DNA of 13,949 nucleotides. Source: Halothece sp. Uz-M2-17. Its GTDB lineage: Bacteria; Cyanobacteriota; Cyanobacteriia; Cyanobacteriales; Rubidibacteraceae. The translations under genes were made by a program, and so were the position numbers. The stretch spans positions 1 through 13,949 of the forward strand of contig JAVLCL010000031.1 in NCBI GenBank assembly GCA_031580825.1. Reading direction: 5' to 3'. The notes under the pieces were generated by a model. It did not search any database. It was not told the origin of the DNA and saw only the letters and a program-made list of their open reading frames with translations. Shown piece after piece: positions 1 to 13,932 of the stretch (positions are counted from its first letter, which is position 1; every line of letters begins with the position of its first letter).

Positions 1-1
1 C

Positions 2-310
2 TCAGCGCAAGTGAACGAAATGTTAGCGCAAATTTGGCAAGATACAGGAGTTGATGCTTCAGAGTTATTCTTGGTGCAACAGATGGAAATGATTCTGAAA
101 CAAGCAGCCAAAGTACCCCATCGCTTGCATTTAGGTGAAGTGACAGTGATTGATAATGGCAATGGTAAAGCCCTTGCTTCCCTGTCAAATGCTTATCCGG
201 AAATGATTCGTCAGTTTTTAAAACAATCAGAAGACACACTCGGTATTACCCTCAGTGGTAAAAAGAGGGAAGTTGCTGAAGAAAACCAAATGGAGGAGGA
301 AGACGCATGA
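2..310 (+). CDS. Flotillin-like (SPFH/band-7 family) protein, C-terminal fragment; 5' end lies outside the window
   Basis: The frame stays open back to the window edge. The C-terminal segment ELFLVQQMEMILKQAAKVPHRLHLGEVTVIDNGNG...LGITLSG parallels the C-terminus of the downstream flotillin ORF (EIFLFQKLEPLLSSMVNTVPEIDVQKVTVIDPAKGGN...TGIDLPG). The stop overlaps the next ATG (ATGA at 307-310). Confidence 0.6.
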   Translation, partial: SAQVNEMLAQIWQDTGVDASELFLVQQMEMILKQAAKVPHRLHLGEVTVIDNGNGKALASLSNAYPEMIRQFLKQSEDTLGITLSGKKREVAEENQMEEEDA

Positions 311-1563
311 CTGCTATTGTAACCTTACTGGTGCTTTTGTTCGGCGGGGCAGGAACCATTGGTCTCGTGATTAAAAATTTATATTACATCTGTCAGCCGA
401 GTGAAATTCTCATTTTTGCTGGAACTCGTCAAACTGTGAGTGGTGATAAAAGCGTTGGTTATCGCTTGGTCAAAGGGGGAAGTAGTATCCGCAAACCCTT
501 GTTAGAAAAAGTGTTTCGGATGAACCTCACCAATATGATTATTGAGTTGAAAGTGACCAATGCTTACTCGAAAGGGGGGATTCCCTTAAAAGTAGATGGG
601 GTTGCCAATATTAAAGTTGCTGGGGAAGAACCCACCATTCACAACGCGATCGAGCGGTTATTAGGAAAAAGCCAAAAGCAAATTGAAAAAATTGCTCAAC
701 AAACCTTAGAAGGGAATTTAAGAGGCGTTCTCGCCAGTCTAACCCCAGAACAAGTTAACGAAGACAAAATGGCATTTGCTCGGAGTTTATTAGAAGAAGC
801 AGAAGATGACTTACAAAAATTAGGGTTAGTCCTCGATAACTTACAAGTTCAGAATATCTCTGATGATGTAAACTATCTGAACTCCATTGGACGCAAACAA
901 CGAGCAGACTTACTGCGAGATGCGCGAATTGCAGAAGCAAGAACCAAAACGGAATCTGCATTGCAATCAGCAGAAAACGAGAAAAACACCTCTCTACGTC
1001 AAGTGGAAGCTCAAATTGCAAAAGTCCGGGCTGAAGCTAACCGTCGCTTACAAAATGCCCTCACTCAGAGAGAAGCAGGGATTGCCGAAGCAGAATCTGA
1101 AATTGCAGCAGAAGTTGCCCGTACCCAAGCCGAATTAGCGGTACAACGGGAACGACGGAAACAAGTAGAACAGCAACTACAAGCGGATGTCGTCGCCCCC
1201 GCCGAAGCAGACTGTCAACGGGCACAAGCTGAAGCAAAAGGACAAGCAGCTAGCATCATTGAGGATGGAAAAGCGCAAGCCGAAGGGTTACGGAGTCTCG
1301 CCAAATCTTGGAATGCTGCGGGAGAAAATGCCAGAGAAATTTTCCTCTTCCAGAAACTGGAACCGCTCTTATCAAGTATGGTTAACACTGTTCCCGAGAT
1401 TGATGTGCAGAAAGTAACGGTGATTGATCCGGCTAAGGGGGGTAATGCGACCAAATTAGCAGCGTTTACAGAACAGTTGCGAGAAAGCACTGGCATTGAT
1501 TTACCTGGGATTGCAGAACGAATGGGACAGTCGAATCAAAGCAATCAAAACAGTGAAGAGTAG
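307..1563 (+). CDS. Flotillin family protein (SPFH/band-7 domain plus EA-rich coiled-coil flotillin domain)
   Basis: 418 aa. It has an N-terminal TM helix (MTAIVTLLVLLFGGAGTIGLVI). The SPFH-like core has ...GGSSIRKPLLEKVFRMNLTNMIIELKV...IPLKVDGVANIKV. A long Ala/Glu/Gln-rich coiled coil follows (AEARTKTESALQSAENEK...AQAEAKGQAA), typical of flotillin/YqiK-like proteins. A GGAGGAGGA Shine-Dalgarno sits about 8 nt upstream of the ATG. Confidence 0.85.
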   Translation: MTAIVTLLVLLFGGAGTIGLVIKNLYYICQPSEILIFAGTRQTVSGDKSVGYRLVKGGSSIRKPLLEKVFRMNLTNMIIELKVTNAYSKGGIPLKVDGVANIKVAGEEPTIHNAIERLLGKSQKQIEKIAQQTLEGNLRGVLASLTPEQVNEDKMAFARSLLEEAEDDLQKLGLVLDNLQVQNISDDVNYLNSIGRKQRADLLRDARIAEARTKTESALQSAENEKNTSLRQVEAQIAKVRAEANRRLQNALTQREAGIAEAESEIAAEVARTQAELAVQRERRKQVEQQLQADVVAPAEADCQRAQAEAKGQAASIIEDGKAQAEGLRSLAKSWNAAGENAREIFLFQKLEPLLSSMVNTVPEIDVQKVTVIDPAKGGNATKLAAFTEQLRESTGIDLPGIAERMGQSNQSNQNSEE

Positions 1564-1635
1564 TTGTTTTCAGAGAACATTCGTGATTATTAATGTGATC
1601 CAACTCTGATAACAGTTGAATATAACACTCTAAAG

Positions 1636-1658
1636 AAACTCCCTCGCTGAGGGAGTTT
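1636..1658. terminator. Perfect 10-bp inverted repeat hairpin (AAACTCCCTC-gct-GAGGGAGTTT) about 70 nt after the flotillin stop; candidate intrinsic terminator or RNA stability hairpin
   Basis: The inverted repeat is exact in the sequence. The GC-rich core stem CTCCCTC/GAGGGAG is followed by TTTAAAAA, so the T-run is short and this is not a canonical terminator. Confidence 0.35.
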
Positions 1659-1856
1659 AAAAATAGAATTTAAACCAGAATATTAATTATAAAAAAATAA
1701 TTATTGTGCGATTTTATTATTTATAGGAGTCTTCCAGTTCTAGGCTATATCGGTTTATAATAAAGGCTTAAGAGTCAGCAAAAAAATGTTTCAAAATAAA
1801 ATTCTTTTCAGGATTTTTGTATGTAAAAGTTAACTTGAACTTAACTCAGACCAACA

Positions 1857-2573
1857 ATGAAAAAACTAATTTTTTATTTCGCTTCTGTTCTTTTGTCCAC
1901 ATTACCGGCACAAGCTGTTCCTAACTTTGCGTCAAGGAATATTCAAGGACTGAATGTTAATGTTCCTCAAGGATGGCAGGTAGAATCAGATCACTATAGT
2001 ATTCAACTGTTTGCAGATCCCAGTAACGAAGACGCACCAACGATGGGATTAATTGCAGCAACAGCAAATCAAAGTATGACCATTACCCCAGCGCAAGTGA
2101 GTGCTATGGTTATCCAACAAATTCAAGCAGCAGCACCCACGACTCAAATGCAGTTAGTTGATCAAAATGACAATGGGACTGCTTTGTATCAGCTTCATCA
2201 ACTGACTGAAGGTTCAAATATTGGTTATATGAGTAGCTACACATATACTGATCAAGGCAGTGGTTCTATGGTTTATGTCTTTTTTACCGCTTTAGCTCAA
2301 GATTTTGTTAACTTAGGCGGTCCCGCTTTACCTTTAGTTGCTTTTGGTGGACTGCAACCACAAGCTGTTGCTAACATTCAACAGCAAGTCACTCAAAATC
2401 CTGCATCTTACCAAAATAATATCAATCAGGATCAGTACAGTAATCTGCAAGTTACCCCTCAAAATTATGAGATGCTGTCCCAAATCTCAGCCATGTCTCA
2501 TGAGACAAGTATGAAAATCCTTCATAATATCGGAGGCGGTTGGTGTTACAGGGGAGAACCAAATTGTTATTAG
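1857..2573 (+). CDS. Secreted hypothetical protein, Q/N-rich, with a C-terminal Cys pair
   Basis: 238 aa. It has a signal peptide (MKKLIFYFASVLLSTLPAQA|VP) and low-complexity Gln/Asn/Thr-rich composition. The C-terminus is GGGWCYRGEPNCY. I recognise no family. Confidence 0.6.
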   Translation: MKKLIFYFASVLLSTLPAQAVPNFASRNIQGLNVNVPQGWQVESDHYSIQLFADPSNEDAPTMGLIAATANQSMTITPAQVSAMVIQQIQAAAPTTQMQLVDQNDNGTALYQLHQLTEGSNIGYMSSYTYTDQGSGSMVYVFFTALAQDFVNLGGPALPLVAFGGLQPQAVANIQQQVTQNPASYQNNINQDQYSNLQVTPQNYEMLSQISAMSHETSMKILHNIGGGWCYRGEPNCY

Positions 2574-2605
2574 ATTTGAATCTCTGTCGTGTTCCTGTCC
2601 CAAAA

Positions 2606-3022
2606 TCATGATTCTAATAAGTTCCGATCGTCTTCACTGGGTAAATAGAGCATTGCTGTTTGTGCTTCTTCATCTGCTTCTACCCAGATTTGAATCGGTA
2701 GTTCAGCTTCTACACCGTTATGAGGAATAGAGAGTCCGACAAAACTTTCCCCATCTTCAGCCTGACGACCCATTAAGTTAAGGGAATTATCTTCAATTTC
2801 CCATAATTGTAGGGGACGAGTAAAATTCCAATTTTTCATTAAGCGTTGTTGATTTTGGAATTTAATAAAATGTCTTAACTCTTCCATCCCATCTTCTGCG
2901 GGGAGAAATAAATAGGGTTGTGCAGCAACGATCAAACTAATTAATTCATTAAGTTTTTCATCATTCTCTTTTAAATCTAAAACGCCTTGAGTTCCTTCTA
3001 CTCTAATTTCTGGTGTCTCCAT
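2606..3022 (-). CDS. Hypothetical acidic cytoplasmic protein
   Basis: 138-aa ORF, acidic, with no TM helices. It is divergent from the downstream transporter gene. I recognise no family confidently. Confidence 0.5.
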   Translation of the reverse strand: METPEIRVEGTQGVLDLKENDEKLNELISLIVAAQPYLFLPAEDGMEELRHFIKFQNQQRLMKNWNFTRPLQLWEIEDNSLNLMGRQAEDGESFVGLSIPHNGVEAELPIQIWVEADEEAQTAMLYLPSEDDRNLLES

Positions 3023-3264
3023 TCTGTTTCCTTAGCCTCATTGCTGGCAATTTTATCACAGTCAAAAATTACCAAAAAAATTACGGGTTTAATGCTCCGT
3101 CATTACTATTGAGTGCCTATGATCTGTTACTTGGGGCAAATTCCCGAATGACTAACGACCATCATAGAAACCCTTGCTCTCGTTAAACTGAAGGATACAG
3201 GGAGTGCAATGCTTAAACTGCAATTAGTTTGATTCCTATATCTCCCCCATCTTGGGTCTCTCTC

Positions 3265-5094
3265 ATGTTTAGTTTTCTGGTCTTACAAGCTCTAGCGATG
3301 GGGTTTGTTAGTGCCTGTTCATTGCCTCTAGGAGCATTAACGGCTCGTTTCTGGCAACCGAGACAGCGTGCATTAGCTTTTCTGATGGCGTTTGGGGCGG
3401 GCGCGTTACTTTCAGCGTTAGCGATTGATTTGGTGAATCCTGCCGTAGAAGCTGGATATTTTTATCCTCTCGCCTTCGGATGTATTTTGGGTGGACTATT
3501 ATTTCTATCTCTAAACCAATTGCTCAATAATTATGGGGGATTTCTTAGAAAAGATTCGATTACGGCTCACTACTTCCAAGCTCGTCAACGACGCAGATTT
3601 AAGCGTATGCTGTCAAATATGGGTCGAATTGATGTATTTCAGCAGCTAGCCCCTAGAGAAATTCAACAGCTTGCCAATAGTGTTTTTAGTCGTAAATATC
3701 CAGCAGGAACCCGAGTTTATCACTCTCGTGAACCGTCAGCAGGTCTTTATATGATTGAAGAAGGGGAAGTGGAACTCTTAGATCCACAGCAAAATGCCCG
3801 TGTTGTTAAGCACTTGACCAAAAATGATGCCTTTGGGCGGATGGCATTTTTTACGGGTGCACCTCACGCCACGATCGCGCTGACAAAAACAGATACTCGA
3901 CTTTGGATCTTACCGAAAACGGCGTTTGATCAGTTGCTCAAAACGTCCCCGACATTAGTGGAAGCGGTCAAACAATTACTTCAAAGTCATGAGATTGCGT
4001 TTTATTTACAACAGCGACAAGGACTCTCACCCAAAAATGTCAAAGCATGGGTGAAGCGGGCGGTTCAAGAAATTGAAACGTGCAGTGCGCCACAGGAAGT
4101 TATTTCCGTTGAGCGCAAAGATCAAGAACTAGAACATCTCTTAACTCAAGTCCGACGAGTTCCGATTTTCCAAGATTTATCACCGGAAGATACACGAGCG
4201 ATTGCAGGGCGGGTTTTTTGCAAACGACATCCCAAGGGTCACACCTTTTTTCATCAAGGTGAACTCGCTGATCGGATGTATATTATCGAAAGTGGAGAAG
4301 TGGCATTAATTGACCGTACCAATCCGCAGCGACAGCCTTTAAACTTGCAAAAACAAGATGCTTTTGGCAGTCTATCTTTTTTAACGGGAACTTTCCACAC
4401 GGCGACCGCGATCGCGAATACAGAGACCATCGTTTGGGTCTTACGAGAACAAGATTTTAATGAACTGTTACAAACCTCACCGCTTCTGGAAACAGCAGTT
4501 AAAACCTTTTTACAAGAAGGAGAAGTGTTTCACTATCTCCAAGAGCGACAAAATTTTGATTTGGATCAAGCTGCGCGTTGGACTCAAAAAGTCATTAAAA
4601 TTATGGATTCGGGTCAATTCATTCCTTCTGCTGCGGAGATGAGAGACGCAATTGAAGAACACCGCAGCGCACCGGTTGCGATCTGGTTGGGGTTGATGCT
4701 GGATGACATTCCCGAATCATTAGTTATTGGTTCCAGCTTAGTCCACTCTCAGGTTAGTTTCTCCTTGATGGCTGGGTTATTTCTCTCGAACTATCCAGAA
4801 GCCCTTTCTAGTTCAGTCGGAATGATGCGACAAGGCTTCTCTTTTCGGCGCGTGGTCAGTATGTGGAGTTCGCTCACTGTAGTGACAGCAGTGGGTGCTG
4901 CACTCGGAAGTCTCTTTTTTGTGAGTGTATCGCCGTTTCTCTTTTTTTTCGTAGAAGGATTAGCAGCCGGTTGCGTACTCACGATGGTTGTGGAAACAAT
5001 GTTGCCCGAAGCCTATTTGAAAGGAGGATCAATTATTGGATTTTCGACTTTAATGGGATTTCTGGCTGCTTTATTTTTTAAAACATTCGAGTGA
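3265..5094 (+). CDS. ZIP-family (ZupT-like) metal permease with two tandem cyclic-nucleotide-binding (CAP/CNB) domains inserted in the cytoplasmic loop
   Basis: - **ZIP N-terminal half:** ALAFLMAFGAGALLSALAIDLV resembles ZupT [22 protein letters not shown].
- **ZIP C-terminal half:** LMLDDIPESLVIGSS...LFLSNYPEALSS...FVEGLAAGCVLTMVVETMLPEA...GFSTLMGFLAALFF resembles ZupT LHNFPEGIA...LHNIPEGLAV...AGIMVALSVDELMPLA.
- **Two CNB beta-roll signatures in between:** FGRMAFFTGAPHATIALTKTDTRLWILPKTAFDQLL and FGSLSFLTGTFHTATAIANTETIVWVLREQDFNELL. Each is followed by a FxYLQxRQ helix.
- **Start uncertain:** the ORF track begins at TTG 3229; the first ATG is 3265. Confidence 0.8.
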   Translation: MFSFLVLQALAMGFVSACSLPLGALTARFWQPRQRALAFLMAFGAGALLSALAIDLVNPAVEAGYFYPLAFGCILGGLLFLSLNQLLNNYGGFLRKDSITAHYFQARQRRRFKRMLSNMGRIDVFQQLAPREIQQLANSVFSRKYPAGTRVYHSREPSAGLYMIEEGEVELLDPQQNARVVKHLTKNDAFGRMAFFTGAPHATIALTKTDTRLWILPKTAFDQLLKTSPTLVEAVKQLLQSHEIAFYLQQRQGLSPKNVKAWVKRAVQEIETCSAPQEVISVERKDQELEHLLTQVRRVPIFQDLSPEDTRAIAGRVFCKRHPKGHTFFHQGELADRMYIIESGEVALIDRTNPQRQPLNLQKQDAFGSLSFLTGTFHTATAIANTETIVWVLREQDFNELLQTSPLLETAVKTFLQEGEVFHYLQERQNFDLDQAARWTQKVIKIMDSGQFIPSAAEMRDAIEEHRSAPVAIWLGLMLDDIPESLVIGSSLVHSQVSFSLMAGLFLSNYPEALSSSVGMMRQGFSFRRVVSMWSSLTVVTAVGAALGSLFFVSVSPFLFFFVEGLAAGCVLTMVVETMLPEAYLKGGSIIGFSTLMGFLAALFFKTFE

Positions 5095-5349
5095 GCGAGC
5101 TTCGCTCGATCGCGCTTATAGAAGTCTCGATATCCTCAAAAAATGCCGACGCTGGATCGATACCAGTGACCCGTAAATTCTTTGGCATTATAACCTCTAA
5201 GGTGAGGGAAGTCAGTAGATTAAATTTTTACAATTTAGATCATTTTACTATATGTTTTATACATCTAAATCTATATGCTCTTTATCATATAAATATAATA
5301 CTAGAATTTAGTAGTTTAATAAAGCCTCACCCAACAAGGTCAATATAAT

Positions 5350-6114
5350 ATGGCTTATCAAAATATATTACTAGACTTAGATATTAACTTTATTCAAAAT
5401 CTTAAGATTGCATGGAATATTTTTAAGGCAAATTTTAAACTCTTTTTTGTTTTATCAATAATTAGACCACTCATAGCATTGATTTCAGTATTACTCGACT
5501 CATTGCCTCAATTAATGTTTAGTGCTTAGATTGATAATATTTTCTTTATTTTATACTTTTTGACGGCTTTAGTAGAACTAACACTAATTTTGATTCCATA
5601 TATTGTTACAGAACAGACAGTCCTGAATAATAAGAGTCAACTTAAGCTAGCATTCAAAAAAGCATTGAGTAAAACATTAATTATCATCATTATTACTTTG
5701 ATCTTAACAATTATAACTGGAATCGGTTTTCTACTATTGATTATTCCTGGAATTTATTTATCAACTCTCTTTAGTTTTTTGTGGCAGTCAATTTGTTTGC
5801 GAAACTGTAAACTAAATGCTTTTACATATAGTAAGAATTTAGTAAAAGGAAGGTGGTGGAAAGTTTTTTATCACTTTTTCTTAATTAGTTTTTTTGGGAT
5901 AATTTTATCATTTTTTATTTTTATGATTTCGGGAATTATTAGTTTTGCCTTACCACAAATTCTAACTTGGAATTATTGGGTTTCCTTTATTTTTATTATC
6001 TTGCCTTTAACGTACTTTTTGTTAGCTTTAACTGTTAATTATTTTATCACAGTGATTACTATTTATTTTCTCAACTTAGATTATAGAAAAAATGGTTTAC
6101 CACTGCGAGTATAA
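5350..6114 (+). pseudogene. DUF975-like polytopic membrane protein gene interrupted by an in-frame TAG (5527-5529); the ORF track shows only the distal part, from TTG 5560 to 6114
   Basis: ATG 5350 opens a 59-codon ORF (MAYQNILLDLDINFIQNLKIAWNIFKANFKLFFVLSII...) in the same frame as the 5560..6114 ORF. A single TAG separates them. The N-terminal W-x-x-FK-x-NF motif and the downstream IIPGIYLSTLFSF...SKNLVKGRWWKVF motifs match the DUF975/YciC-like integral membrane family. That family normally carries them in one polypeptide. Confidence 0.5.
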
Positions 6115-6275
6115 TTTATAAAACTACCCAAGTACTCATGATTTAAATCTTGCTGATCGCCTCGGAAGGTGATGGCGTATGGGGGATTTAAAGCCTGTTC
6201 ATTCGTAGCAACCATTAGGAGATTTCATTCATATTAACTAGAAACCTTGAAAAATAATAAGGAAAGGCGACATAT

Positions 6276-6303
6276 TTGACTAAAAATTAACTTTTCTTAA
6301 AAT
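6276..6303 (+). promoter_or_regulatory. Candidate sigma70-type promoter (TTGACT -16 nt- TAAAAT) about 80 nt upstream of the 6384 gene
   Basis: Motif match only, inside an AT-rich intergenic region. No other support. Confidence 0.25.
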
Positions 6304-6383
6304 TTGGCTTATTACTAATTTGCCAGTTTTATGGGTGTGATAAACTGCCTTGCAAGTCAAGCTATATAAAATGGATTACTAAT

Positions 6384-7652
6384 ATGTCTCAACAACTGAT
6401 TCCTCCCCGAAATATTCAGATTGATGAAACGCATAATAATGTCAGAATTGTCCGAAAGTGGTTAGACAAAACGTTTTTCTCATATTTGTTGCCATTAGCA
6501 ATTGGTTGGAATGGATTTTTCGCTTGTGGTATCTGGATACTTTTCATTAGTGGAAATATAACTTTCAGTTCTGGAATGTTAACTTCAAATATGCCCGTTT
6601 TTGCTAATATAATAATAATTTTATTTATATTAATGGGAATTTATTTAATCTATCTTGTAATTGTAAAATTAATCAACAGAACTGAAATTATAGCTAATGA
6701 TGAAGAAATTGCGATTAGCCACAGACCACTTTTTTATCTTGGCTTAAAGAGGAAACGATTTAGAGTTTCTAATTTAAAGGACTTCCACGTTAAACAAGTT
6801 TATAACCCTGGTACAATTCCAAGTCAATATTATTGTTATGAGGTTTATGCTAATACTCATACAGGAAGTGATCAGAAATTGCTTACTGTTGCAAGTAGTA
6901 AAGAGGCTTATTTTATTGAGACAACCCTAGTAGAGTATTATAAAATTGAACTTGAACCAGAAAATGAAACTGAACATGAGCCGATAAATGCGCGTAGTTT
7001 ACAATCAAAAGAAAAACAACCTGTTGTGAGTAGTGTTAATAAGCCTAATGAAATAGAAAGTCCTAAAAGCATTAAAATTTATCAGGATGATACCCAAATT
7101 AAAATCAGCAAAAAATGGACTGGTGGGGCTTTTATGGCAGGATTTGCAATTTTGTGGAACGGTATTTTTATTGTTTTGGCTCTATTATTTGCTAACAGTG
7201 ACAATACAACTGGAAATCCCTCGCTCCTATTTCCATATTTTTTGGTATTTTTCTCTACGGGATTATTGCTTATTTATGTTGCAGTTATGCTGTGGCGAAA
7301 TTATACCTATATTGTTGCCAATGAGGAATTGATTACGGTTAGCTATGGATCAGTTCCCTGTCCTTGGTTTAGAAATCAACAGATTAAAGCAACTCAATTA
7401 AAAAGACTGTATTCTAAAGTATATTCTAGGGGTAAAAATGGTTATACTTATATCATTCATGCCAAGATGACTTGGAAAAGAAAGAAAAATAGAGAAATAG
7501 AAGAAAGGCTAGTTAGTGTTGATAGTCGTCAAGAAGCCTTGTTTATTGAGAGGACATTAGAGGATTATTACAACATAGAAGATCAGCCTCAGGAAGGAGA
7601 AATTGGTGGACCTGAAAGATCGGTTCTTCGTCGGTTCCTCGGAAATCAATAA
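6384..7652 (+). CDS. Internally duplicated membrane protein of unknown function: 2 x [short beta-strand + TM hairpin + ~110-aa soluble domain]
   Basis: 422 aa.
- **Repeat 1:** IQIDETHNNVRIVRKW..LAIGWNGFF..(2 TM)..EIIANDEEIAISH...YCYEVYAN...KEAYFIETTLVEYYKIE.
- **Repeat 2:** IKIYQDDTQIKISKKW..AILWNGIF..(2 TM)..YIVANEELITVSY...YTYIIHAK...QEALFIERTLEDYYNIE.
- It lies in the low-GC island. I recognise no family confidently; it may be a bacterial PH-like (membrane-flanked) domain arrangement. Confidence 0.75.
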   Translation: MSQQLIPPRNIQIDETHNNVRIVRKWLDKTFFSYLLPLAIGWNGFFACGIWILFISGNITFSSGMLTSNMPVFANIIIILFILMGIYLIYLVIVKLINRTEIIANDEEIAISHRPLFYLGLKRKRFRVSNLKDFHVKQVYNPGTIPSQYYCYEVYANTHTGSDQKLLTVASSKEAYFIETTLVEYYKIELEPENETEHEPINARSLQSKEKQPVVSSVNKPNEIESPKSIKIYQDDTQIKISKKWTGGAFMAGFAILWNGIFIVLALLFANSDNTTGNPSLLFPYFLVFFSTGLLLIYVAVMLWRNYTYIVANEELITVSYGSVPCPWFRNQQIKATQLKRLYSKVYSRGKNGYTYIIHAKMTWKRKKNREIEERLVSVDSRQEALFIERTLEDYYNIEDQPQEGEIGGPERSVLRRFLGNQ

Positions 7653-7777
7653 TACCTTAAAATGGACAACTAAGGGCATTAAATTTCATTTTGTATAGCG
7701 GTTCCTAGTCAGACCAAATAGGTGAAAAGAAGTCATACTAATTCAATGCTGTACTTTATCAGTTCAAGAATTCCTAT

Positions 7778-7797
7778 AAGGTTTTTTAGCCAACCTT
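7778..7797. terminator. Weak hairpin (AAGGTT-N8-AACCTT) between the convergent 6384 and SNF2 genes; possible terminator
   Basis: The 6-bp AT-rich stem is present in the sequence. GCGTTTTTT follows about 10 nt later on the plus strand. This is weak. Confidence 0.2.
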
Positions 7798-7810
7798 CCC
7801 CAAGCGTTTT

Positions 7811-10800
7811 TTAAACTGACAGAATGGACTTTTGGCAACGCGCTATTAATTCTTCAAATATAGGATCGCCAAAACTCATCAAACGTAGTGAACTGTTCTC
7901 AGCAAAAACTTCAGGATAAAATGTAACTTGATAAGCGTTACTTGAATCATGCAGTTGCCAAGTCTGTTCCGTCAACTTAGTCCACTCCACTCCCTGTAAA
8001 GCCAAAATCCTAGAATTGGTCATTAATTGTTCAATGGCTTTTGGAGAAAGGGGAGAAGGAGGAAGGGGTTCATTCACTTCCGCTAAATCGGCTTCCACAT
8101 CTCGGTTGACCAAATCATCCACATCCATCTCCATCTGGACGTTGTTGAAATTCTGCTCAAATTCCGCCATCAACACATCTTCCTCTTGCGGATCTGCACT
8201 CATGACGGCTTTTTCAATGAAGGTGGGAACTTCTGCGAGAATCGGTTGAACATGACCGACGACATTCTCAAATAAATCAATGCGATCGCGCAGCCGTCGA
8301 TAAACTTTCGCTTCTACTGTTCCATCATAGTAGAAGTTATGAATCCTGACCGTAGAATACCGTTGTCCAATGCGATCCAATCGTCCGATCCGTTGTTCTA
8401 CTCGCATCGGGTTCCAAGGGAGGTCATAATTGATTAAAACGCCACAGGTTTGTAAGTTTAGTCCTTCACTGGCTGATTCGGTACAAATTAAGAGTTTGAT
8501 AGCGCGTAGGTCGGAGACCGAGCCGTAGGCATCGCGAAAACTGCGCTTAATCTGTTCCTTGGGAACAATCCGCCATCTGTCCCCTTCATAAAGTTCTCCA
8601 CCTCTTCCCGAATAACAGGCGAGTTGCGTTCCATACAGTTGTTGTAACGATTCTCGCAAATAGTCCATTGTGTCAGTGTACTGGGTGAAGATGAGGATAC
8701 TTTCGCGATTTAGAAATTCTTGACGAAGGAGATCAATGAGAAACGATAACTTACTATCTTCTCCTGTATTTTCAAACTGACGCAGTAAATCTTCTAAATA
8801 CTCGATTTCTTTGGGGTCAACGGGTTCAGCTAAATAAGACTCTAACCCTGTAATCACCGCATCATCCACTTCATCCAGTTCAATTAAATCATCTTCGGTG
8901 ACACTAATGCCATCTAAACGACGTTGAAGCGATTGACGAACGGCGTAAAAAGAACTGGTGAGGCGTTTGCGATACAGGGTCATCAAAAAGCCTAATGCTT
9001 TGCGTTCCTGTTTTTGCGCGAGGCGATAAAAGTCCCGCACATAGTCACTGACAGCACGATAAAGAGGGATTTCACGGTTGGTTTCGAGGTTAATGGCGTT
9101 ATCTTGAACTTCGCGGGTGGGAACATCCCGTTCTAACATTCCCCGTTTGTAATATTCTCTCAAGGTATCGCGGGTGTGGCGGAACATATGGTCTTTGAGG
9201 GGAGTGTTAACGGTGAGATATTGGCGGGAGGTGTTAATAAACGGTTTATTCGCCAGAGAAGATTTGTAGTTGGCGATCTTTTTCCCTTTTTCCCAAGTAT
9301 CCTGGAGTTGGTAAGCTAGAACGCGATCGCGCTGTTTAAGATAGTCTTGAAAACGGGGACAAGCCCTTCCCCCATTACGGAAATAATCGGTGGACATCCG
9401 TTGCCAAAATTCTAGAGTATTTTGATTCGGTTGATTGCTAAGAGAGGCAAAATAATCACAGAAGTTATCGCCGTAATACCAGTGTCCTTTTAAGCCGAAT
9501 AAATGGAGGAGATCAAAGACTTCAATGGGATCGATTTGCATGGGAGTCGCTGATAAAAGAATCAGTGATTTTGCCTTTCCGCTTTCCCGTAGTTGTTGCA
9601 TTAAGGTTAACAACCGATTGGGAGTATCTTTTCGCGCTTGCGGGCTTTTTCGTCTGGCGTGGTGGGCTTCATCTAATACGACTAAATCCCAAGCCTTTGC
9701 TGATAACAATTCTTCCATCCGTTCTTGACGGCGCATCAAATGACTGGAGGCTAAAACTAAATCTTTACTATTCCAAGGATTCGTAAAGTTTTCCTGATTT
9801 TCTGTTTTCCCATAACAGTCTTGAAACGCCCCTTTAGTATAACTCCAAAAATGTAAGTTAAACTTTTCTCGCAGTTCTTCTTGCCATTGGGTTTGTACAC
9901 TTGCAGGAGAAAGCACTAACACTCGTTGTACTTTTTGGGTAATCAAAAGATATCGTAAAATTAAACCCGTTTCAATGGTTTTTCCTAAGCCAACTTCATC
10001 AGCAATCAGGAAGCTATGGGGAAATTGTTCCGCAACACGGCGCAGAATTTTAACTTGATGTAACCAAGGAGTAATGGGAATAGATTGCAAGCAAAAATCT
10101 AAGCATCCGTCATGCTTTGGAAGATTAAATAATAGTTCCCATTGTTGTTTTTCTTCATTAGTTATTTGTGGTTGGTTATTCGTTATTTGTTCTTCGTCGG
10201 CGGTTTGAGTGTTATAGTCATTCCAATTAATTTTCGTAGTGCGACCGTCTCGGTCGCTGTTAGAAAAAGTGTCTTGGTTGCTGTTAGAAACGGTATCGGC
10301 GCGATCGTTGTTAGGGAGCAAGATGCTCCCACTACTATTCACCTGATAATTCTCCTTGGGAATTACTATAGGGCGAGTATCGAATTCTACTTTTTGATTC
10401 CAGGTTGGTTTCGTATTTGGAGTGTAGCGTAAGAGTTTTTGACGCACCGCTTCGGGAACTTCAAAGGTTTTCACATTCGGTGCAAAATTATTCCAAAGTT
10501 GTTCAAAGCGAAACACTTCTTCTGAAACTCGTTCTAAATCTCTTCCCCCTTCCCATGAGCAGTAAACATGAAACGATTCAACATTTTGTTCCCAGCCACT
10601 TAGGGATTCATTATTTGACCCAAAACAGACTAATTGGTTATTCTCAGCATCGGTAAAGATTCCCACTTTTTCATGGAAAATATGTTGCGGATTAATTTGA
10701 GTTTCCGATGATTCAGGAAGTCCATTTTTTTTGAAAGGAATAGCGATTTTTATATCTAAATATTCGTTTTGAATTAGCCAACTGAGGATTTCAAAATGTT

Positions 10801-11122
10801 TCAGTTGGGCGAAGGTTTCAGGAGAGGTTAACTCCGTATCGAGGCGAGTGGTTAAAGCCTCCCGCAGCGCATAACCTTTTTCAATCGCTTCTAAATCTTG
10901 GGGACTAAACTGACAGCCCATAATCAGACGCATTTTACCATTATTGTCTAACATCGCGCCTAATCCTTGAGCTACTTTGCTAAGAATGCGACTACTGAAA
11001 AAGCCTGATTTGCGATCATAGTTGACAGACCGTTCTAAGGCGGGAATGTAAAATTCAAGGATGGGGTTATGTTCGTTACTGGAGTAACCAATGCGCCAAG
11101 TGTAATCAGGTAATGTTTGCAT
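7811..11122 (-). CDS. PLD-family nuclease (single HKD motif) fused to an SNF2-family helicase (helicase-nuclease)
   Basis: 1103 aa.
- **N-terminal domain (about aa 1-230):** HEKVGIFTDAENNQLVCFGSNNES is an H-x-K...D...GS-x-N PLD/Nuc motif.
- **Linker:** a low-complexity N/S/Q/T stretch.
- **SNF2 motifs:** Walker A is FLIADEVGLGKTIETG. The DEAH box is LVVLDEAHHARR. Motif III is LLSATPMQ. Motif VI is QRIGRLDRIGQ, with LICTESASEGLNLQ ahead of it. Confidence 0.9.
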   Translation of the reverse strand: MQTLPDYTWRIGYSSNEHNPILEFYIPALERSVNYDRKSGFFSSRILSKVAQGLGAMLDNNGKMRLIMGCQFSPQDLEAIEKGYALREALTTRLDTELTSPETFAQLKHFEILSWLIQNEYLDIKIAIPFKKNGLPESSETQINPQHIFHEKVGIFTDAENNQLVCFGSNNESLSGWEQNVESFHVYCSWEGGRDLERVSEEVFRFEQLWNNFAPNVKTFEVPEAVRQKLLRYTPNTKPTWNQKVEFDTRPIVIPKENYQVNSSGSILLPNNDRADTVSNSNQDTFSNSDRDGRTTKINWNDYNTQTADEEQITNNQPQITNEEKQQWELLFNLPKHDGCLDFCLQSIPITPWLHQVKILRRVAEQFPHSFLIADEVGLGKTIETGLILRYLLITQKVQRVLVLSPASVQTQWQEELREKFNLHFWSYTKGAFQDCYGKTENQENFTNPWNSKDLVLASSHLMRRQERMEELLSAKAWDLVVLDEAHHARRKSPQARKDTPNRLLTLMQQLRESGKAKSLILLSATPMQIDPIEVFDLLHLFGLKGHWYYGDNFCDYFASLSNQPNQNTLEFWQRMSTDYFRNGGRACPRFQDYLKQRDRVLAYQLQDTWEKGKKIANYKSSLANKPFINTSRQYLTVNTPLKDHMFRHTRDTLREYYKRGMLERDVPTREVQDNAINLETNREIPLYRAVSDYVRDFYRLAQKQERKALGFLMTLYRKRLTSSFYAVRQSLQRRLDGISVTEDDLIELDEVDDAVITGLESYLAEPVDPKEIEYLEDLLRQFENTGEDSKLSFLIDLLRQEFLNRESILIFTQYTDTMDYLRESLQQLYGTQLACYSGRGGELYEGDRWRIVPKEQIKRSFRDAYGSVSDLRAIKLLICTESASEGLNLQTCGVLINYDLPWNPMRVEQRIGRLDRIGQRYSTVRIHNFYYDGTVEAKVYRRLRDRIDLFENVVGHVQPILAEVPTFIEKAVMSADPQEEDVLMAEFEQNFNNVQMEMDVDDLVNRDVEADLAEVNEPLPPSPLSPKAIEQLMTNSRILALQGVEWTKLTEQTWQLHDSSNAYQVTFYPEVFAENSSLRLMSFGDPIFEELIARCQKSILSV

Positions 11123-11124
11123 GG

Positions 11125-11142
11125 TTTGTTATTCGTTATTTG
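11125..11142. repeat. 18-bp element TTTGTTATTCGTTATTTG in the DUF5615-to-SNF2 intergenic gap; left arm of a perfect inverted repeat with 12427-12444
   Basis: It is exactly identical to the reverse complement of 12427-12444 (CAAATAACGAATAACAAA). It sits 3-20 nt upstream of the SNF2 ATG on the coding strand. Confidence 0.6.
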
Positions 11143-11143
11143 G

Positions 11144-11476
11144 CTAAGTTAGCACTAAAATACTTTCCGTTGCGCTATTACAAAACTGGCTAATGGTGTC
11201 AAATTGATCTCTGAGAACTTGAACAATTTTAGAGGTTGGCCTGTTTCCAATACGAAGATAAATAAATTTAGGAGGATGACCATAAAGTAAGCTACGTTGA
11301 TAAAAGTCAGAGTCCTTAGAAACAATGACAAAATCATTGGCTTTTGCATACTCCCAAATTACTGCATCATCGGTGTTTGTTAAACCAACAGTCTTAACAT
11401 GGGTAGAATCAGGATATAGATCAACAATCCTATTAATGATACGGTCGGAAAGATTTTCGTCTAATAGCAGTTTCAC
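11144..11476 (-). CDS. DUF5615 family PIN-like (Mut7-C-like) protein; toxin-like partner of DUF433
   Basis: 110 aa: MKLLLDENLS...GLTNTDDAVIWEYAKANDFVIVSKDSDF matches the DUF5615 consensus (LLDENLP...GL..ASD.EI..A.....ILITKDKDF). Its start overlaps the DUF433 stop (ATGA at 11473-11476). Confidence 0.75.
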   Translation of the reverse strand: MKLLLDENLSDRIINRIVDLYPDSTHVKTVGLTNTDDAVIWEYAKANDFVIVSKDSDFYQRSLLYGHPPKFIYLRIGNRPTSKIVQVLRDQFDTISQFCNSATESILVLT

Positions 11477-11697
11477 AATGAAGTTACAAATAGCTTTTTC
11501 TCACGGTCAGCAGCAAAAGCAAGACAGGCTTTAATATCTTCAGGAGTTAATTCAGAAAAATCTTCTAAAATTTCCTCTTCAGTCATTCCACCTGCTAAGT
11601 ATTCTAGAATATCAGAGACAGTAATTCGCATTCCTCGAATACAGGGTTTTCCGCTACGTTTTCCAGGTTCAATTGTAATGATTTGATGGTAATCCAT
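11473..11697 (-). CDS. DUF433 family protein (antitoxin-like partner of DUF5615)
   Basis: 74 aa: IITIEPGKRSGKPCIRGMRITVSDILEYLAGGMTEEEILEDFSELTPEDIKACLAFAA matches the DUF433 signature (GKP.I.GTRI.V..IL..LA.G.S.EEIL.DYP.LT.EDI.A.L.YA). Confidence 0.8.
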   Translation of the reverse strand: MDYHQIITIEPGKRSGKPCIRGMRITVSDILEYLAGGMTEEEILEDFSELTPEDIKACLAFAADREKKLFVTSL

Positions 11698-11735
11698 TTT
11701 TGTTCTCAGTTATTTGAAGTTAATCAAGAAAATAA

Positions 11736-12020
11736 CTACATATTATTAATTTTGACAGGACGGGCTTGATTATCTAACTCGGAACGATAGTTGTTTTCTA
11801 AATTTATCCAAATATCAGCCGATGTTTCTAAACTCTTACCTAGATCATTTGCAATCTCAGTTGTAATTTGTTGATCTCCTTTTAGAATTGCTTCAATTAT
11901 TTCTACAGAATATCCCATTCTTTCTGCTAGATCATTTTTTGTCCAGTCCCGTGCTTCTAACTCCCGATTCAAGATTTTTCCTGGTGCAACTCTTCTGGCG
12001 GGGGTTAATTTTTTACTCAT
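11736..12020 (-). CDS. higA: HigA-family HTH (XRE-type) antitoxin/transcriptional regulator
   Basis: 94 aa: PGKILNRELEARDWTKNDLAERMGYSVEIIEAILKGDQQITTEIANDLGKSLETSADIWINLENNY matches the HigA-family pattern (PGEIL.EE.LEP.G.S...LA..LGVS...IS.I..GKR.IT...A..L...FG.S.E.WLNLQ..YDL). Its ATG shares one nucleotide with the upstream TAA (TAATG). Confidence 0.8.
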   Translation of the reverse strand: MSKKLTPARRVAPGKILNRELEARDWTKNDLAERMGYSVEIIEAILKGDQQITTEIANDLGKSLETSADIWINLENNYRSELDNQARPVKINNM

Positions 12021-12409
12021 TATTCTAGTCCTAATTCGTTATTAGTTATTGGTTCGTGTTTCTTTATTGAGTTGAGGTAGGCGTTAAGTTTCGGGGAAAG
12101 TTCTTCGATTAAGGGCTTAATTTGATTGATTTCTTCCTCGGTTAAAAGTTTATGATTATAAGCGAGTCTTAGCCAATGGCGAGTTTCATAGAGAGAACCT
12201 CTTGCTATTTTAATAAAACGTTGATTATCTTTATAATTATAACGTCCATTTCCTTCAGCAATATTTGCGCCAATACTATCAGCAGATCGAATGATTTGTT
12301 TCCCGACAGTATTTTTAGCAAAGTAATCCCATTTTGCAACGATAACCCAAAGCTGATTAGCCAATTCTTCTGCTAGTTGATAAACTCTCAACTCTGAAAA
12401 TTTTGCCAT
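12020..12409 (-). CDS. Four-helix-bundle protein of the '23S rRNA intervening-sequence protein' family (Avd-like)
   Basis: 129 aa: FSELRVYQLAEELANQLWVIV...GKQIIRSADSIGANIAEGNGRYNYKDNQRFIKIARGSLYETRHWLRLAYNHKLLTEEE matches the family hallmarks (F..L.VWQ.A..L...IY......Q.RRAA.SI..NIAEG.GR....E...FL.IA.GS..E.). Confidence 0.8.
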   Translation of the reverse strand: MAKFSELRVYQLAEELANQLWVIVAKWDYFAKNTVGKQIIRSADSIGANIAEGNGRYNYKDNQRFIKIARGSLYETRHWLRLAYNHKLLTEEEINQIKPLIEELSPKLNAYLNSIKKHEPITNNELGLE

Positions 12410-12426
12410 TCCCTTCTCCCAAACAA

Positions 12427-12444
12427 CAAATAACGAATAACAAA
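12427..12444. repeat. 18-bp element CAAATAACGAATAACAAA in the MTase-to-4HB intergenic gap; right arm of the perfect inverted repeat
   Basis: Exact reverse complement of 11125-11142. It lies in the 38-nt gap between the MTase stop (12448) and the 4HB start (12409). Confidence 0.6.
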
Positions 12445-12447
12445 TAA

Positions 12448-13932
12448 CTAAATCCCTAAATTCATCTGTCCATCGTCTAAGTTGATCTCCATTTGTTCGT
12501 AAAGCACCTTAGATTTAATTTCATCCATGGCTAACCATAAGTCTAATAACGCTTTATGTTCAGGGACATTTTGCGGAATTACCTTAAACGCCACTTCCAT
12601 TGTTTTACTAAACATATCATTACTAACTAACCCTGTATCGTGCATAAACCGCCGTACCATTTGGATGTTTTCTTCTTCTTGATAAAGGGCGATAATCGCA
12701 TGAAGTCCATTCACTAAATGTTGGGCGGAAAATTCTTGGGGGTTGATGGAAAAGGCGCGTTTTTTCAGGCGCTGAATAGGGGTTAAGAGTTTACAGCTTC
12801 CACTGGCGGAGTCGAGGAGTTTATGGACTTTTGCTAAGTCGGTGACGTTAAACCCACCAATGGCTAAGGCTAACTGTCGCGCTTCATCAAAGGGGAACTC
12901 TCGCGCTTTGAACGCATCCCACGCCAGAAGATACCATTGGGTTAAGGTGTCAAACCCTGCGGTGTCGCTTTGTACCAGTTTTTGGAAGCGGTAGTTTGCA
13001 ATGGCGGTTCTCGCTTCGGCGAAGGCTTTTTCGGGACGGACTTCTTCTCCTGTACTATCGAGGATAGGGTAGGAACGGGAGAAGACGTTGAGGGCGGGAC
13101 CAAAGGCGCTAAGATAAAGGTCAATTCCTGTGATGTCGTTGGCTTCAAAGTCAGGGGCGCGAGACTCTACAAGGTTGGCAACTTCGGGGCGCAAATCATC
13201 CCACCAGGCTTGTTCGGCGTTGGGGTCGCGTTTACGACAGACTAATAAAACGGTGCTGGAAACGCTATTTTTCTTGGCTTGGTGGAGGTTTTGGGGGCTT
13301 TCGGTACTAACCGCCCAAGATGCGGTAATCTCGAAGCCTGCATCAATGAGAGATTTGGTTAGGACATCCCACGCGCCAGAGTCTTTATGGTTAAACTGAA
13401 CGGTCATCACGCCATGTTCTTTTAAGACGCGATAGTATTCAGCGAACGCCATTTGCATTTTCCCTTCGTAGTCTTGGCTGGCGAGTTCGTCGGGGGAGAC
13501 TCCCATGTTACGGAAACGGGAAGAGTTAGCAACGGCTTCTCTATCTTTATCGGTGAGTTCAGTGAGGAAAAGTTCGGGGTGAATACCTTCTAAAACTCTT
13601 TTTTGCCAGACGTAGAAAAAGTCTGATATTTCTGCATATTGAATAGTTGCGTAATAAGGAGGGTCAGTGACGATGGTATCAACAGAGTTATCAGGAATAT
13701 GGAATAAACTATCAGCAGAAGCAGAGTTGATTTGAATTGATTTAGAGTCGTATTTTTCCAGTTCTTTTAGTTGGATAGAGTTAGATTGTGTTCCTAATAA
13801 TTGACAAAGTTTACTGTATTCTGAAGCTAAAGCATCAGCACACCAATGCCATAATTCTCCATTTCCACTAATTTCTGGATAATTCCAAAATAAATTGGCT
13901 CTTCTAGAGTGAGTATGATAAGTTAATACCAA
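12448..13932 (-). CDS. DNA methyltransferase domain protein (DPPY motif IV; amino-MTase N6-A/N4-C type), apparently N-terminally incomplete or split
   Basis: 494 aa from a TTG start.
- **Motif IV:** SADSLFHIPDNSVDTIVTDPPYYATIQYAEISDFFYVWQ. It is followed by a YY.VLKEHGVMTVQFNHKD...AGFEITASWAV block typical of amino-MTases.
- **No motif I:** I see no FxGxG SAM-binding motif I anywhere in the ORF.
- **N-terminal limit:** an in-frame TAA immediately precedes the TTG, so the N-terminal part must be missing, frameshifted or encoded separately. Confidence 0.7.
   Translation of the reverse strand: MVLTYHTHSRRANLFWNYPEISGNGELWHWCADALASEYSKLCQLLGTQSNSIQLKELEKYDSKSIQINSASADSLFHIPDNSVDTIVTDPPYYATIQYAEISDFFYVWQKRVLEGIHPELFLTELTDKDREAVANSSRFRNMGVSPDELASQDYEGKMQMAFAEYYRVLKEHGVMTVQFNHKDSGAWDVLTKSLIDAGFEITASWAVSTESPQNLHQAKKNSVSSTVLLVCRKRDPNAEQAWWDDLRPEVANLVESRAPDFEANDITGIDLYLSAFGPALNVFSRSYPILDSTGEEVRPEKAFAEARTAIANYRFQKLVQSDTAGFDTLTQWYLLAWDAFKAREFPFDEARQLALAIGGFNVTDLAKVHKLLDSASGSCKLLTPIQRLKKRAFSINPQEFSAQHLVNGLHAIIALYQEEENIQMVRRFMHDTGLVSNDMFSKTMEVAFKVIPQNVPEHKALLDLWLAMDEIKSKVLYEQMEINLDDGQMNLGI

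Follow-up and report, generated by a model that had tools for sequence, protein, structure and literature searches.

The window analysed here is a complete 13,949-nt contig of the metagenome-assembled genome Halothece sp. Uz-M2-17. On its minus strand, six open reading frames (ORFs) lie head to tail and constitute the locus in question: a DNA methyltransferase (MTase) gene and a gene encoding a phospholipase D (PLD)-like nuclease joined to an SNF2 helicase, with a cassette of four small genes embedded between them. Recomputing all start and stop coordinates gave spacings of 38, -1, 38, -4 and 21 nt, which match exactly the gene order, strand and spacings reported in an earlier description of this DNA (hereafter the first-pass annotation). 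Its domain labels for the four-helix-bundle (4HB), helix-turn-helix (HTH), DUF433, DUF5615 and SNF2 proteins were likewise backed by Pfam, PADLOC and NCBIfam searches. The six ORFs are:

12448-13932, minus strand: MTase ORF, 494 aa, TTG start
12020-12409, minus strand: 4HB ORF, 129 aa
11736-12020, minus strand: HigA-like HTH ORF, 94 aa
11473-11697, minus strand: DUF433 ORF, 74 aa
11144-11476, minus strand: DUF5615 ORF, 110 aa, GTG start
7811-11122, minus strand: HKD-SNF2 helicase ORF, 1103 aa, intact

A terminator scan detected no minus-strand terminator-like site inside the six-gene array, and no rRNA or other Rfam family was found anywhere in the window; the Rfam, tRNA and terminator scans added nothing further. 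The dN/dS ratio was 0.05-0.26 across all genes of the array, and the small cassette genes are under purifying selection. Exact-sequence look-ups of the helicase, MTase-fragment, 4HB and HTH proteins gave no record.

The 1103-aa protein had been described as a single-HKD PLD domain followed by a full SNF2 core, and this description was borne out by the match of its N-terminus to an anti-phage protein model and by its invariant motifs. Its parts are:

10394-11113, minus strand: N-terminal single-HKD PLD-like nuclease domain, aa ~4-243
10610-10675, minus strand: HKD/GSNN motif, in the PLD-like domain
10103-10384, minus strand: low-complexity variable linker, aa ~247-340, partly heptamer repeats
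8177-10063, minus strand: RapA-like Swi2/Snf2 ATPase core, aa ~354-982, with a C-terminal tail after it

The helicase core was recognized by the Pfam families SNF2-rel_dom (E=3e-17) and Helicase_C (E=5e-16), and PLDc_2 alone stayed sub-threshold (17.7 bits vs 27). The N-terminal 250 aa, searched alone, matched the N-terminus of NCBIfam NF042964 ('phospholipase D-like domain-containing anti-phage protein') with E=3.8e-13; over the whole protein this model scored 366 bits, below its cut-off of 1100. In 21 homologues (66-86% identity), residues H150, K152, D158 and G168-S-N-N171 are invariant, as are the helicase motifs GLGKT, DEAHH and QRIGRxDRIGQ. For the PLD fold, a profile search against PDB sequences gave no match and Foldseek against the PDB gave nothing significant, with an AlphaFold model of mediocre quality (pLDDT 63); the best PDB match of the protein was RapA, over the ATPase core only. 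PADLOC models matching the protein were PbeA, PLD_Helicase, DrmD, HmaA and HKD+Snf2, and membership of Dpd/Pbe was considered and rejected on scores and gene context. The helicase gene has a dN/dS of 0.11 against its closest relative with genomic context (locus L001; loci fetched for comparison carry L numbers). A protein search at E<=1e-20 yielded 3,485 proteins, and 352 genome stretches encode a relative; the 120 relatives listed are all proteins of ~1,000 aa, 59-95% identical, and the HKD-SNF2 family is very widespread in cyanobacteria.

At the other end of the array, the MTase ORF is a fragment, not a complete gene:

12448-13896, minus strand: 3' half of a DUF1156-family N6-adenine DNA MTase, 482 codons, motif IV (DPPY) present

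It corresponds to residues ~455-936 of the 936-aa L001 orthologue and aligns with positions 542-899 of the 973 in the PADLOC HmaB profile (E=6e-39), that is, with the C-terminal ~40% only. The NCBIfam model NF042963 was matched at positions 554-767 of 960, with 95 bits for the fragment and 240 for the full-length L001 MTase, against a cut-off of 1000. The AdoMet-binding motif I (FAGGG, L001 residue 110), the DUF1156 domain and the Zn-ribbon have no counterpart in the window ORF. Of the earlier label, 'DPPY methyltransferase', the motif stands, and the complete gene does not.

The neighbourhood of related loci places both enzymes within a larger array. A tblastn comparison over 82 loci revealed, in most loci with enough flank, a conserved order on one strand: a DUF499 AAA+ ATPase, a DUF7680 protein, a DUF1156 MTase (~930 aa) and the HKD-SNF2 helicase. 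The PLD(HKD)-SNF2 and MTase genes are the last two of the array in dozens of cyanobacterial loci, and the order is found in Nostoc, Calothrix, Scytonema, Trichodesmium, Microcoleus, Tychonema, Arthrospira and Pleurocapsa, on chromosomes as well as on plasmids. In L001, whose helicase is 94% identical to that of the window, the DUF499 ATPase gene is followed by an opposite-strand TacAT pair, DUF7680, HigB and HigA, a Y1 transposase fragment, the 936-aa DUF1156 MTase, 4HB, DUF433, DUF5615, the helicase and a SIR2 protein. The relatives' DUF499 proteins match HmaC/DUF499 defence models, their MTases match HmaB/DUF1156 models, and their 142-aa small protein matches DUF7680 with E=2.4e-47. The first-pass annotation had advised looking upstream for DUF499 and DUF3780 genes: DUF499 is indeed present in the relatives, and the small gene is DUF7680, not DUF3780.

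A DUF499-centred, BREX-related (BR), restriction-modification (RM)-like system has been described under the name Type-2 BR (NAR 2026, PMC12839542). Its set comprises a helicase with an N-terminal HKD domain, an N6-MTase, a DUF499 ATPase and a small standalone protein (PMC12839542). We conclude, with a probability of about 80%, that this region makes up the distal part of a cyanobacterial DUF499-centred BREX-related (Type-2 BR, Hma-like) RM-like system, and that the four small genes are hotspot cargo, not components. The earlier call of a restriction-like anti-phage module was right in kind, both enzymes falling in families modelled as anti-phage (NF042964 and NF042963 in NCBIfam; PLD_Helicase, HKD+Snf2, DrmD, HmaA/HmaB and DUF1156_MTase in PADLOC). 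The alternatives that it had itself raised fell away: a housekeeping RapA identity was rejected on score (only 211 bits vs a 576-bit cut-off) and on gene context, the MTase is of the DNA-adenine type, and the related loci lie amid toxin-antitoxin (TA), SIR2 and plasmid genes. By contrast, its statement that the combination is not a named system is outdated, since the set of HKD-helicase, N6-MTase, DUF499 and small protein is that of Type-2 BR (PMC12839542). The contig should thus be annotated as a partial Type-2 BR/Hma-like locus with a truncated methylase, and not as a new MTase-nuclease-TA system or a complete RM module.

What is seen directly at this locus is the domain content, the conservation of motifs, the gene order of relatives and purifying selection. 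By analogy with related systems, the MTase would mark host DNA by adenine methylation, and the DUF499 ATPase with the small protein would detect unmarked DNA or search for it. The SNF2 motor may then translocate on this unmarked DNA, which the N-terminal single-HKD nuclease would cut where it is unmodified, probably as a dimer as in Nuc and BfiI.

Several points weigh against the Type-2 BR assignment. The mechanism just outlined derives from domain content and from comparison with Type-1/Hma and BREX, and to our knowledge no Type-2 BR system has been experimentally tested. The window holds neither DUF499, nor DUF7680, nor the 5' half of the MTase gene, the contig ending first. DUF3780 was not detected in the relatives' small protein by Pfam (E<=1), PADLOC or NCBIfam. 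The NCBIfam equivalog scores are far under their cut-offs (366 vs 1100; 95 vs 1000), and the cyanobacterial clade is therefore divergent. Finally, near-universal occupancy of the gap between MTase and helicase genes and 78% co-orientation of the ORFs within it, detailed below, are compatible with some benefit of the inserts as a class, as addiction or back-up.

The MTase gene breaks off at a precise position. Nucleotide homology to L001 and that to L002, two independent orthologues, end at the same base, window 13896 (blastn), followed by unrelated sequence and the contig end:

13897-13949, minus strand: junction sequence unrelated to MTase orthologues, 53 nt at the contig end

These 53 nt supply the TTG 'start' from which the apparent ORF is read and, immediately ahead of it, an in-frame TAA. 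They may come from the margin of a mobile or repeated element or from an assembly join, and had no exact match in the scanned metagenome contigs (two scans) or in the fetched loci. Since the window is the whole contig, the MTase break lies at the contig end, and assemblies typically break at repeats. The locus may accordingly be a disrupted or decaying copy, in which a mobile or repeated element or a rearrangement truly interrupts the MTase at codon ~454, leaving the HKD-SNF2 protein as a solo effector or heading to loss. We put this at slightly less than an even chance. Related population contigs are consistent with it: L083, L084 and L086 have internal helicase deletions, with one inverted fragment.

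The helicase remnants lie on plasmid-like contigs at:

L083, 2134-2832
L084, 3176-3599
L086, 1605-1756

These remnants show a family of loci rearranged and eroded in the population. The closest cultured relative, the plasmid CP042329 of Euhalothece natronophila Z-M001 (L002, 3795-13102), carries DUF7680, the MTase, an HTH gene, a VapBC-like pair, TnpB (IS605 OrfB) and then the helicase. No DUF499 was found within 23 kb of this locus, so the Euhalothece copy is also an incomplete system, and the missing DUF499 together with the TnpB gene in the gap speaks for disruption in the window as well. A solo effector also has a parallel, as HmaA suffices for protection against T4 and hmaB or hmaC is missing from 15-20% of Hma loci (PMC11232893). 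On the other side, the 482 retained MTase codons contain no stop or frameshift and have a dN/dS of 0.12, like the helicase, suggesting that the break arose recently, varies within the population, or stems from the assembly. Moreover, the 53-nt end matched no element, and the break may be explained by a chimera at the contig end or by mixed strains in the metagenome.

Between the two enzyme genes, the four small genes have separate histories. The 4HB protein (Pfam 23S_rRNA_IVP, E=7e-31; TIGR02436, E=4e-29) is 95% identical to its L001 copy and 100% identical to a database protein from Halothece sp. Uz-M2-17. The HigA-like protein matches HTH_3 (E=3.6e-5) and scores 43.3 bits with the TIGR02607 HigA model, just under the 47.7 cut-off; the window contains no HigB toxin gene, and the upstream neighbour of the HigA-like gene is the 4HB gene. 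Window positions 11124-12032, which cover HigA, DUF433 and DUF5615, are 98% identical to the plasmid-like metagenome contigs L083-L088, in which a 112-aa HigB-like toxin gene precedes HigA and only fragmentary or deleted helicase remnants, one of them inverted, adjoin the HigB-HigA-DUF433-DUF5615 block. Because these 98%-identical HigA copies follow HigB elsewhere, the window HigA is an orphan antitoxin left by recombination. L001 lacks the HTH gene, and L002 has a copy with 96% identity: positions 11709-12032 match L002 (96%) and L083-L088 (98%), and positions 12008-13896 and 10370-11701 match L001. The DUF433 protein (Pfam, E=1.9e-26) is found in identical form on L083-L088, and DUF5615 follows it every time. 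The DUF5615 protein (Pfam, E=4.6e-33) has a weak PIN_10 match, and its GTG start overlaps the DUF433 stop by 4 nt; the DUF433 and DUF5615 matches both exceed the Pfam gathering scores. The pair also occurs in L001, L007 and L083-L088; DUF433 is a predicted antitoxin and the PIN-like DUF5615 a predicted toxin.

These comparisons indicate that DUF433-DUF5615 is the only conserved, co-inherited pair of the cassette, that 4HB and HigA are not a pair and have different origins, and that the cassette as a whole is a recombinant of a 4HB element, a HigA gene without HigB and the DUF433-DUF5615 pair. The flanking genes provide further evidence of recombination within the operon: against L001, dS is ~0.30 for both the MTase fragment and the helicase, but against the Euhalothece plasmid it is 0.35 for the former and 0.79 for the latter. 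The first-pass annotation had proposed that a HigA-type regulator and two TA-like pairs are wired into the transcript. This proposal is not supported, as HigA is an orphan, only one pair is present and the content varies from locus to locus.

The gap between the MTase and helicase genes is variable throughout the family. Its length is 50-2828 nt (median ~1.1 kb), falling under 300 nt in 4 of 66 loci, and it is filled in 62 of the 66. The 152 gap ORFs of at least 50 aa form 52 sequence clusters, which include Zeta-toxin-like, PIN, ParE and two Uma2 groups, and 119 of them (78%) are co-oriented with the operon. Among the 66 gaps, 4HB occurs in 4 loci, and DUF433, DUF5615 and HTH in 2 each. The DUF7680-MTase gap is as variable (82-4760 nt), and the cassette content differs in nearly every related locus. 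As this neighbourhood comparison shows the small genes changing across related loci, the cassette cannot be regarded as a fixed part of the system. The distribution points to the MTase-helicase gap being an insertion hotspot for different small selfish genes, with the cassette as hitchhiking cargo, not wired-in. In the gaps between core genes, insertion hotspots persist, and heptamer arrays bound them.

Could the embedded genes nonetheless be functional accessories, with the HigA-like HTH autoregulating the operon and DUF5615, together with 4HB, serving as an abortive-infection back-up or an addiction module that stabilizes the locus? The filled gaps (62/66) and co-oriented ORFs (119/152), the lack of a terminator-like site between the genes of the window and the purifying selection on the small genes all argue for such a role. 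So does the recurrence of 4HB at the exact same position in a Nostocales locus (L093-L099), and nucleases such as PIN and HEPN that lie within BREX/BR loci have been proposed as back-up effectors (PMC12839542). We nevertheless consider this unlikely: the occupants fall into 52 clusters, with HTH, DUF433 and DUF5615 in 2/66 gaps each and 4HB in 4/66, the cassette is a recent recombinant from different donors, and HigA is without its toxin. In addition, the HigBA-DUF433-DUF5615 block also sits beside mere helicase remnants on the plasmid-like contigs, and 4HB homologues are also found in chemotaxis-like and ABC-transporter contexts.

The commonest gap occupant, present in 24 loci, is a ~91-aa protein without a Pfam match (MKVRxIKRGQNIE...), for example:

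L009, 9703-9978
L043, 9470-9745

A PIN gene fills this MTase-helicase gap in about 10 loci. The ~91-aa protein may be an unrecognized antitoxin or a lineage-specific accessory.

Every cassette junction of the window carries tandem heptamers (NAATAAC or its complement):

11123-11143, minus strand: helicase leader, 21 nt, CAAATAAC GAATAAC AAACC, a short forward heptamer array before the helicase ATG
12410-12447, minus strand: spacer after the MTase stop, 38 nt, reverse array GTTATTN x3 (operon strand), then the 4HB ribosome-binding site
11125-11142 and 12427-12444: perfect 18-nt inverted-repeat arms, one on each side of the whole four-gene cassette (repeat search)
12038-12050 and 10161-10187: further heptamer units, at the 4HB 3' end and in the helicase linker

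No NAATAAC heptamers occur in window 1-7800, and no NAATAAC-unit arrays in the non-operon parts of the window, L001 and L002. Each cassette boundary of L001 has such an array, and the helicase leader array has 4-5 units in L001, L002 and L004. Other lineages use other heptamer units at the same junctions, and all fetched loci together hold 235 arrays in 1.36 Mb. The idea that heptamer arrays are specific to this operon was weakened by the arrays elsewhere in the loci and by the literature on TAACTGA repeats; indeed, some cyanobacteria and Beggiatoaceae are known to have forward heptamer arrays a short way upstream of start codons (PMC4679880). The heptamers in the PLD-SNF2 linker encode QITNNQPQITNEE, and their use as a frame-shifting phase-variation switch was judged unlikely, the units being imperfect. 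The array copy number varies between close relatives and mosaic breakpoints lie at arrays, making recombination or slippage a plausible route to cassette shuffling.

In the transcript, the spacer and leader arms would form an RNA duplex of -22.6 kcal/mol and they pair in the minimum free energy (MFE) fold of the 1.3-kb cassette; a weaker predicted stem encloses 4HB alone. Across the fetched loci, which hold 12 4HB genes (a small sample, mostly from one operon family), 7 of the 12 reached 17 or more in flanking inverted-repeat score, whereas only 3% of 261 other gap ORFs reached at least 14. TRF found inverted period-7 arrays tightly around 10 of the 12, with a unit that varies between copies, and in MFE folds these arrays pair into terminal stems of 35-61 bp with a mismatch at every seventh position. 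4HB genes, usually enclosed in this way, were located at:

L001, 8945-9408
L004, 706-1137
L017, 13113-13622
L033, 2768-3324
L039, 7244-7713
L039, 2855-3324
L041, 15685-16164
L054, 20128-21120
L057, 11385-11994
L062, 3881-4485
L089, ~2870-3500

The same inverted-array pattern surrounds a chromosomal 4HB gene of Halothece PCC 7418 that lies between chemotaxis-like genes. A rule that inverted heptamer arrays always flank 4HB was rejected, as the Nostocales locus L093-L099 has direct arrays. At L096 1-1612, upstream of the locus, a called product of 1049 aa has both 23S_rRNA_IVP and DUF1156 matches, and is either a 4HB-MTase fusion or a read-through call across a 4HB gene inserted before the MTase.

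A precedent for this packaging exists in Coxiella burnetii's 23S rRNA intervening sequence (IVS), where a 28-bp stem that RNase III cuts has a 4HB (S23p) ORF in its loop, and tandem heptamers precede this ORF (PMC4990558). One possible interpretation, which we hold tentatively, is that 4HB and its arrays form an IVS-like element: pairing of the arrays in the transcript would give a long stem whose loop holds the ORF (in the window, the entire cassette), and the arrays would also act as recombination or slippage substrates that shuffle cassettes. RNase III could then cut the stem, uncoupling the MTase and helicase mRNAs. The contrast between 4HB genes and control ORFs, the enclosing period-7 arrays and their stems, the perfect 18-nt arms around the window cassette, the variable copy number with breakpoints at arrays and the Coxiella parallel (PMC4990558) are all consistent with it. 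Against it stand the direct, not inverted, arrays around 4HB in L093-L099 and the degenerate 4HB-proximal 3' array of the window. Forward arrays before start codons are, besides, a general feature of some cyanobacteria and Beggiatoaceae (PMC4679880) and precede the helicase without any 4HB in L002 and L022. The sample is also small and drawn mostly from one operon family, and cleavage of the stem is predicted only.

A broader and rather doubtful conjecture is that cyanobacterial 4HB genes travel as IVS-like hairpin cassettes, with stems of inverted, lineage- and copy-specific heptamer arrays. Such cassettes would colonize the heptamer leaders between genes of defence operons, be excisable from RNA by RNase III, make, along with slippage-prone arrays, integron-like landing pads from which TA mosaics arise, and tune the MTase/nuclease ratio. 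4HB genes were found earlier in 23S rRNA intervening sequences, and their like stem-and-loop packaging inside mRNA operons offers a concrete handle on both 4HB elements and cyanobacterial heptamer repeats.

Two further ORFs of the window lie outside the array:

6384-7652, plus strand: 422-aa ORF, no family match, convergent with the helicase gene
3229-5094, plus strand: 621-aa ORF, N-terminal ZIP zinc-transporter fragment and two cyclic-nucleotide-binding domains

The 422-aa ORF is an internal tandem duplication, each half having hydrophobic segments and a conserved EAxFIExTLxxYYxIE motif, and its surroundings (window ~5000-7500) are low in GC (26-33%). In the 621-aa ORF, the ZIP fragment covers profile positions 4-100 of 323; the pairing of these domains is uncommon.

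How does this locus compare with known systems? The likeness to SauUSI-type PLD-helicases concerns fold and architecture only and does not reach significance; SauUSI belongs to the modification-dependent type IV enzymes, brings its own target-recognition domain and has no MTase partner. The first-pass annotation had seen the logic of DISARM (DrmA/B/C/D/MI) in the locus, and both are restriction-like and join an SNF2 helicase, a PLD nuclease and an adenine MTase. DrmD models also match the helicase (PADLOC, E=9e-70; NF038317, 289 bits). Yet this NF038317 score compares with a 610-bit cut-off, and PLD-helicase models score better. PLD and SNF2 form one polypeptide here, and annotated L001 and L002 have no DrmA helicase, no DUF1998 (DrmB) and no separate DrmC, the relatives carrying DUF499 and DUF7680 instead. 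DISARM is therefore an analogy only, and it is highly improbable that the locus is DISARM or a variant with DrmD/DrmC/DrmMI logic. Type-3 BREX (BrxC, PglXI, BrxHII) resembles the array through the PADLOC models BrxHI|BrxHII (E=8e-71) and PglXI (E=3e-17) and through BrxC-like homology, but annotated L001 and L002 have no PglZ, BrxA or BrxF, and the effector here is an HKD nuclease.

Hma, the Type-1 BR sister, is represented by HmaABC of Halomonas meridiana, of which HmaA gives resistance to T4 (PMC11232893). It shares with the cyanobacterial array a helicase, a methylase and a DUF499 ATPase, the HmaB and HmaC models matching the MTase and the relatives' ATPase. HmaA, however, has a C-terminal PD-(D/E)XK (NOV_C) nuclease, whereas the window protein has an N-terminal HKD/PLD domain; Pfam found no NOV_C or PD-(D/E)XK domain in the window helicase, of which the HmaA model covers the helicase part only. 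The hma operon is also an insertion hotspot, with inserted genes in 66.5% of hma loci (PMC11232893). The Hma inserts are whole defence systems (Septu, PARIS, Ppl), while the cyanobacterial inserts are small TA, 4HB and Uma2 genes.

As to the arrays, the likeness to the 23S rRNA IVS lies in a PF05635 protein in the predicted loop of an element with inverted-repeat ends and heptamers in the stem region. Here, however, the element lies between protein-coding genes of an mRNA operon, not in 23S rRNA, and its stems are tandem heptamers of lineage-specific sequence. As with TAACTGA-type repeats (PMC4679880), forward heptamers end a few nt before the helicase, MTase and DUF7680 start codons, and the Trichodesmium relative uses ATAACTG, which is TAACTGA rotated. 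Unlike them, the Halothece unit is NAATAAC, and reverse-complement arrays follow stop codons, forming inverted pairs around inserts.

The comparison with Type-2 BR is the closest in architecture. The differences are that the cyanobacterial small protein is DUF7680 by sequence models, versus DUF3780, that the window has the helicase and half the MTase only, and that the intergenic gaps are heavily loaded with TA-type genes. As in Type-2 BR, the HKD endonuclease occupies the helicase N-terminus in the place of TUDOR, ahead of a RapA-like Swi2/Snf2 core, and the adjoining gene encodes a DUF1156-type N6-adenine MTase, full-length in relatives and limited to residues ~455-936 in the window. The relatives also share with Type-2 BR the DUF499 ATPase, with a small standalone protein encoded between ATPase and MTase.

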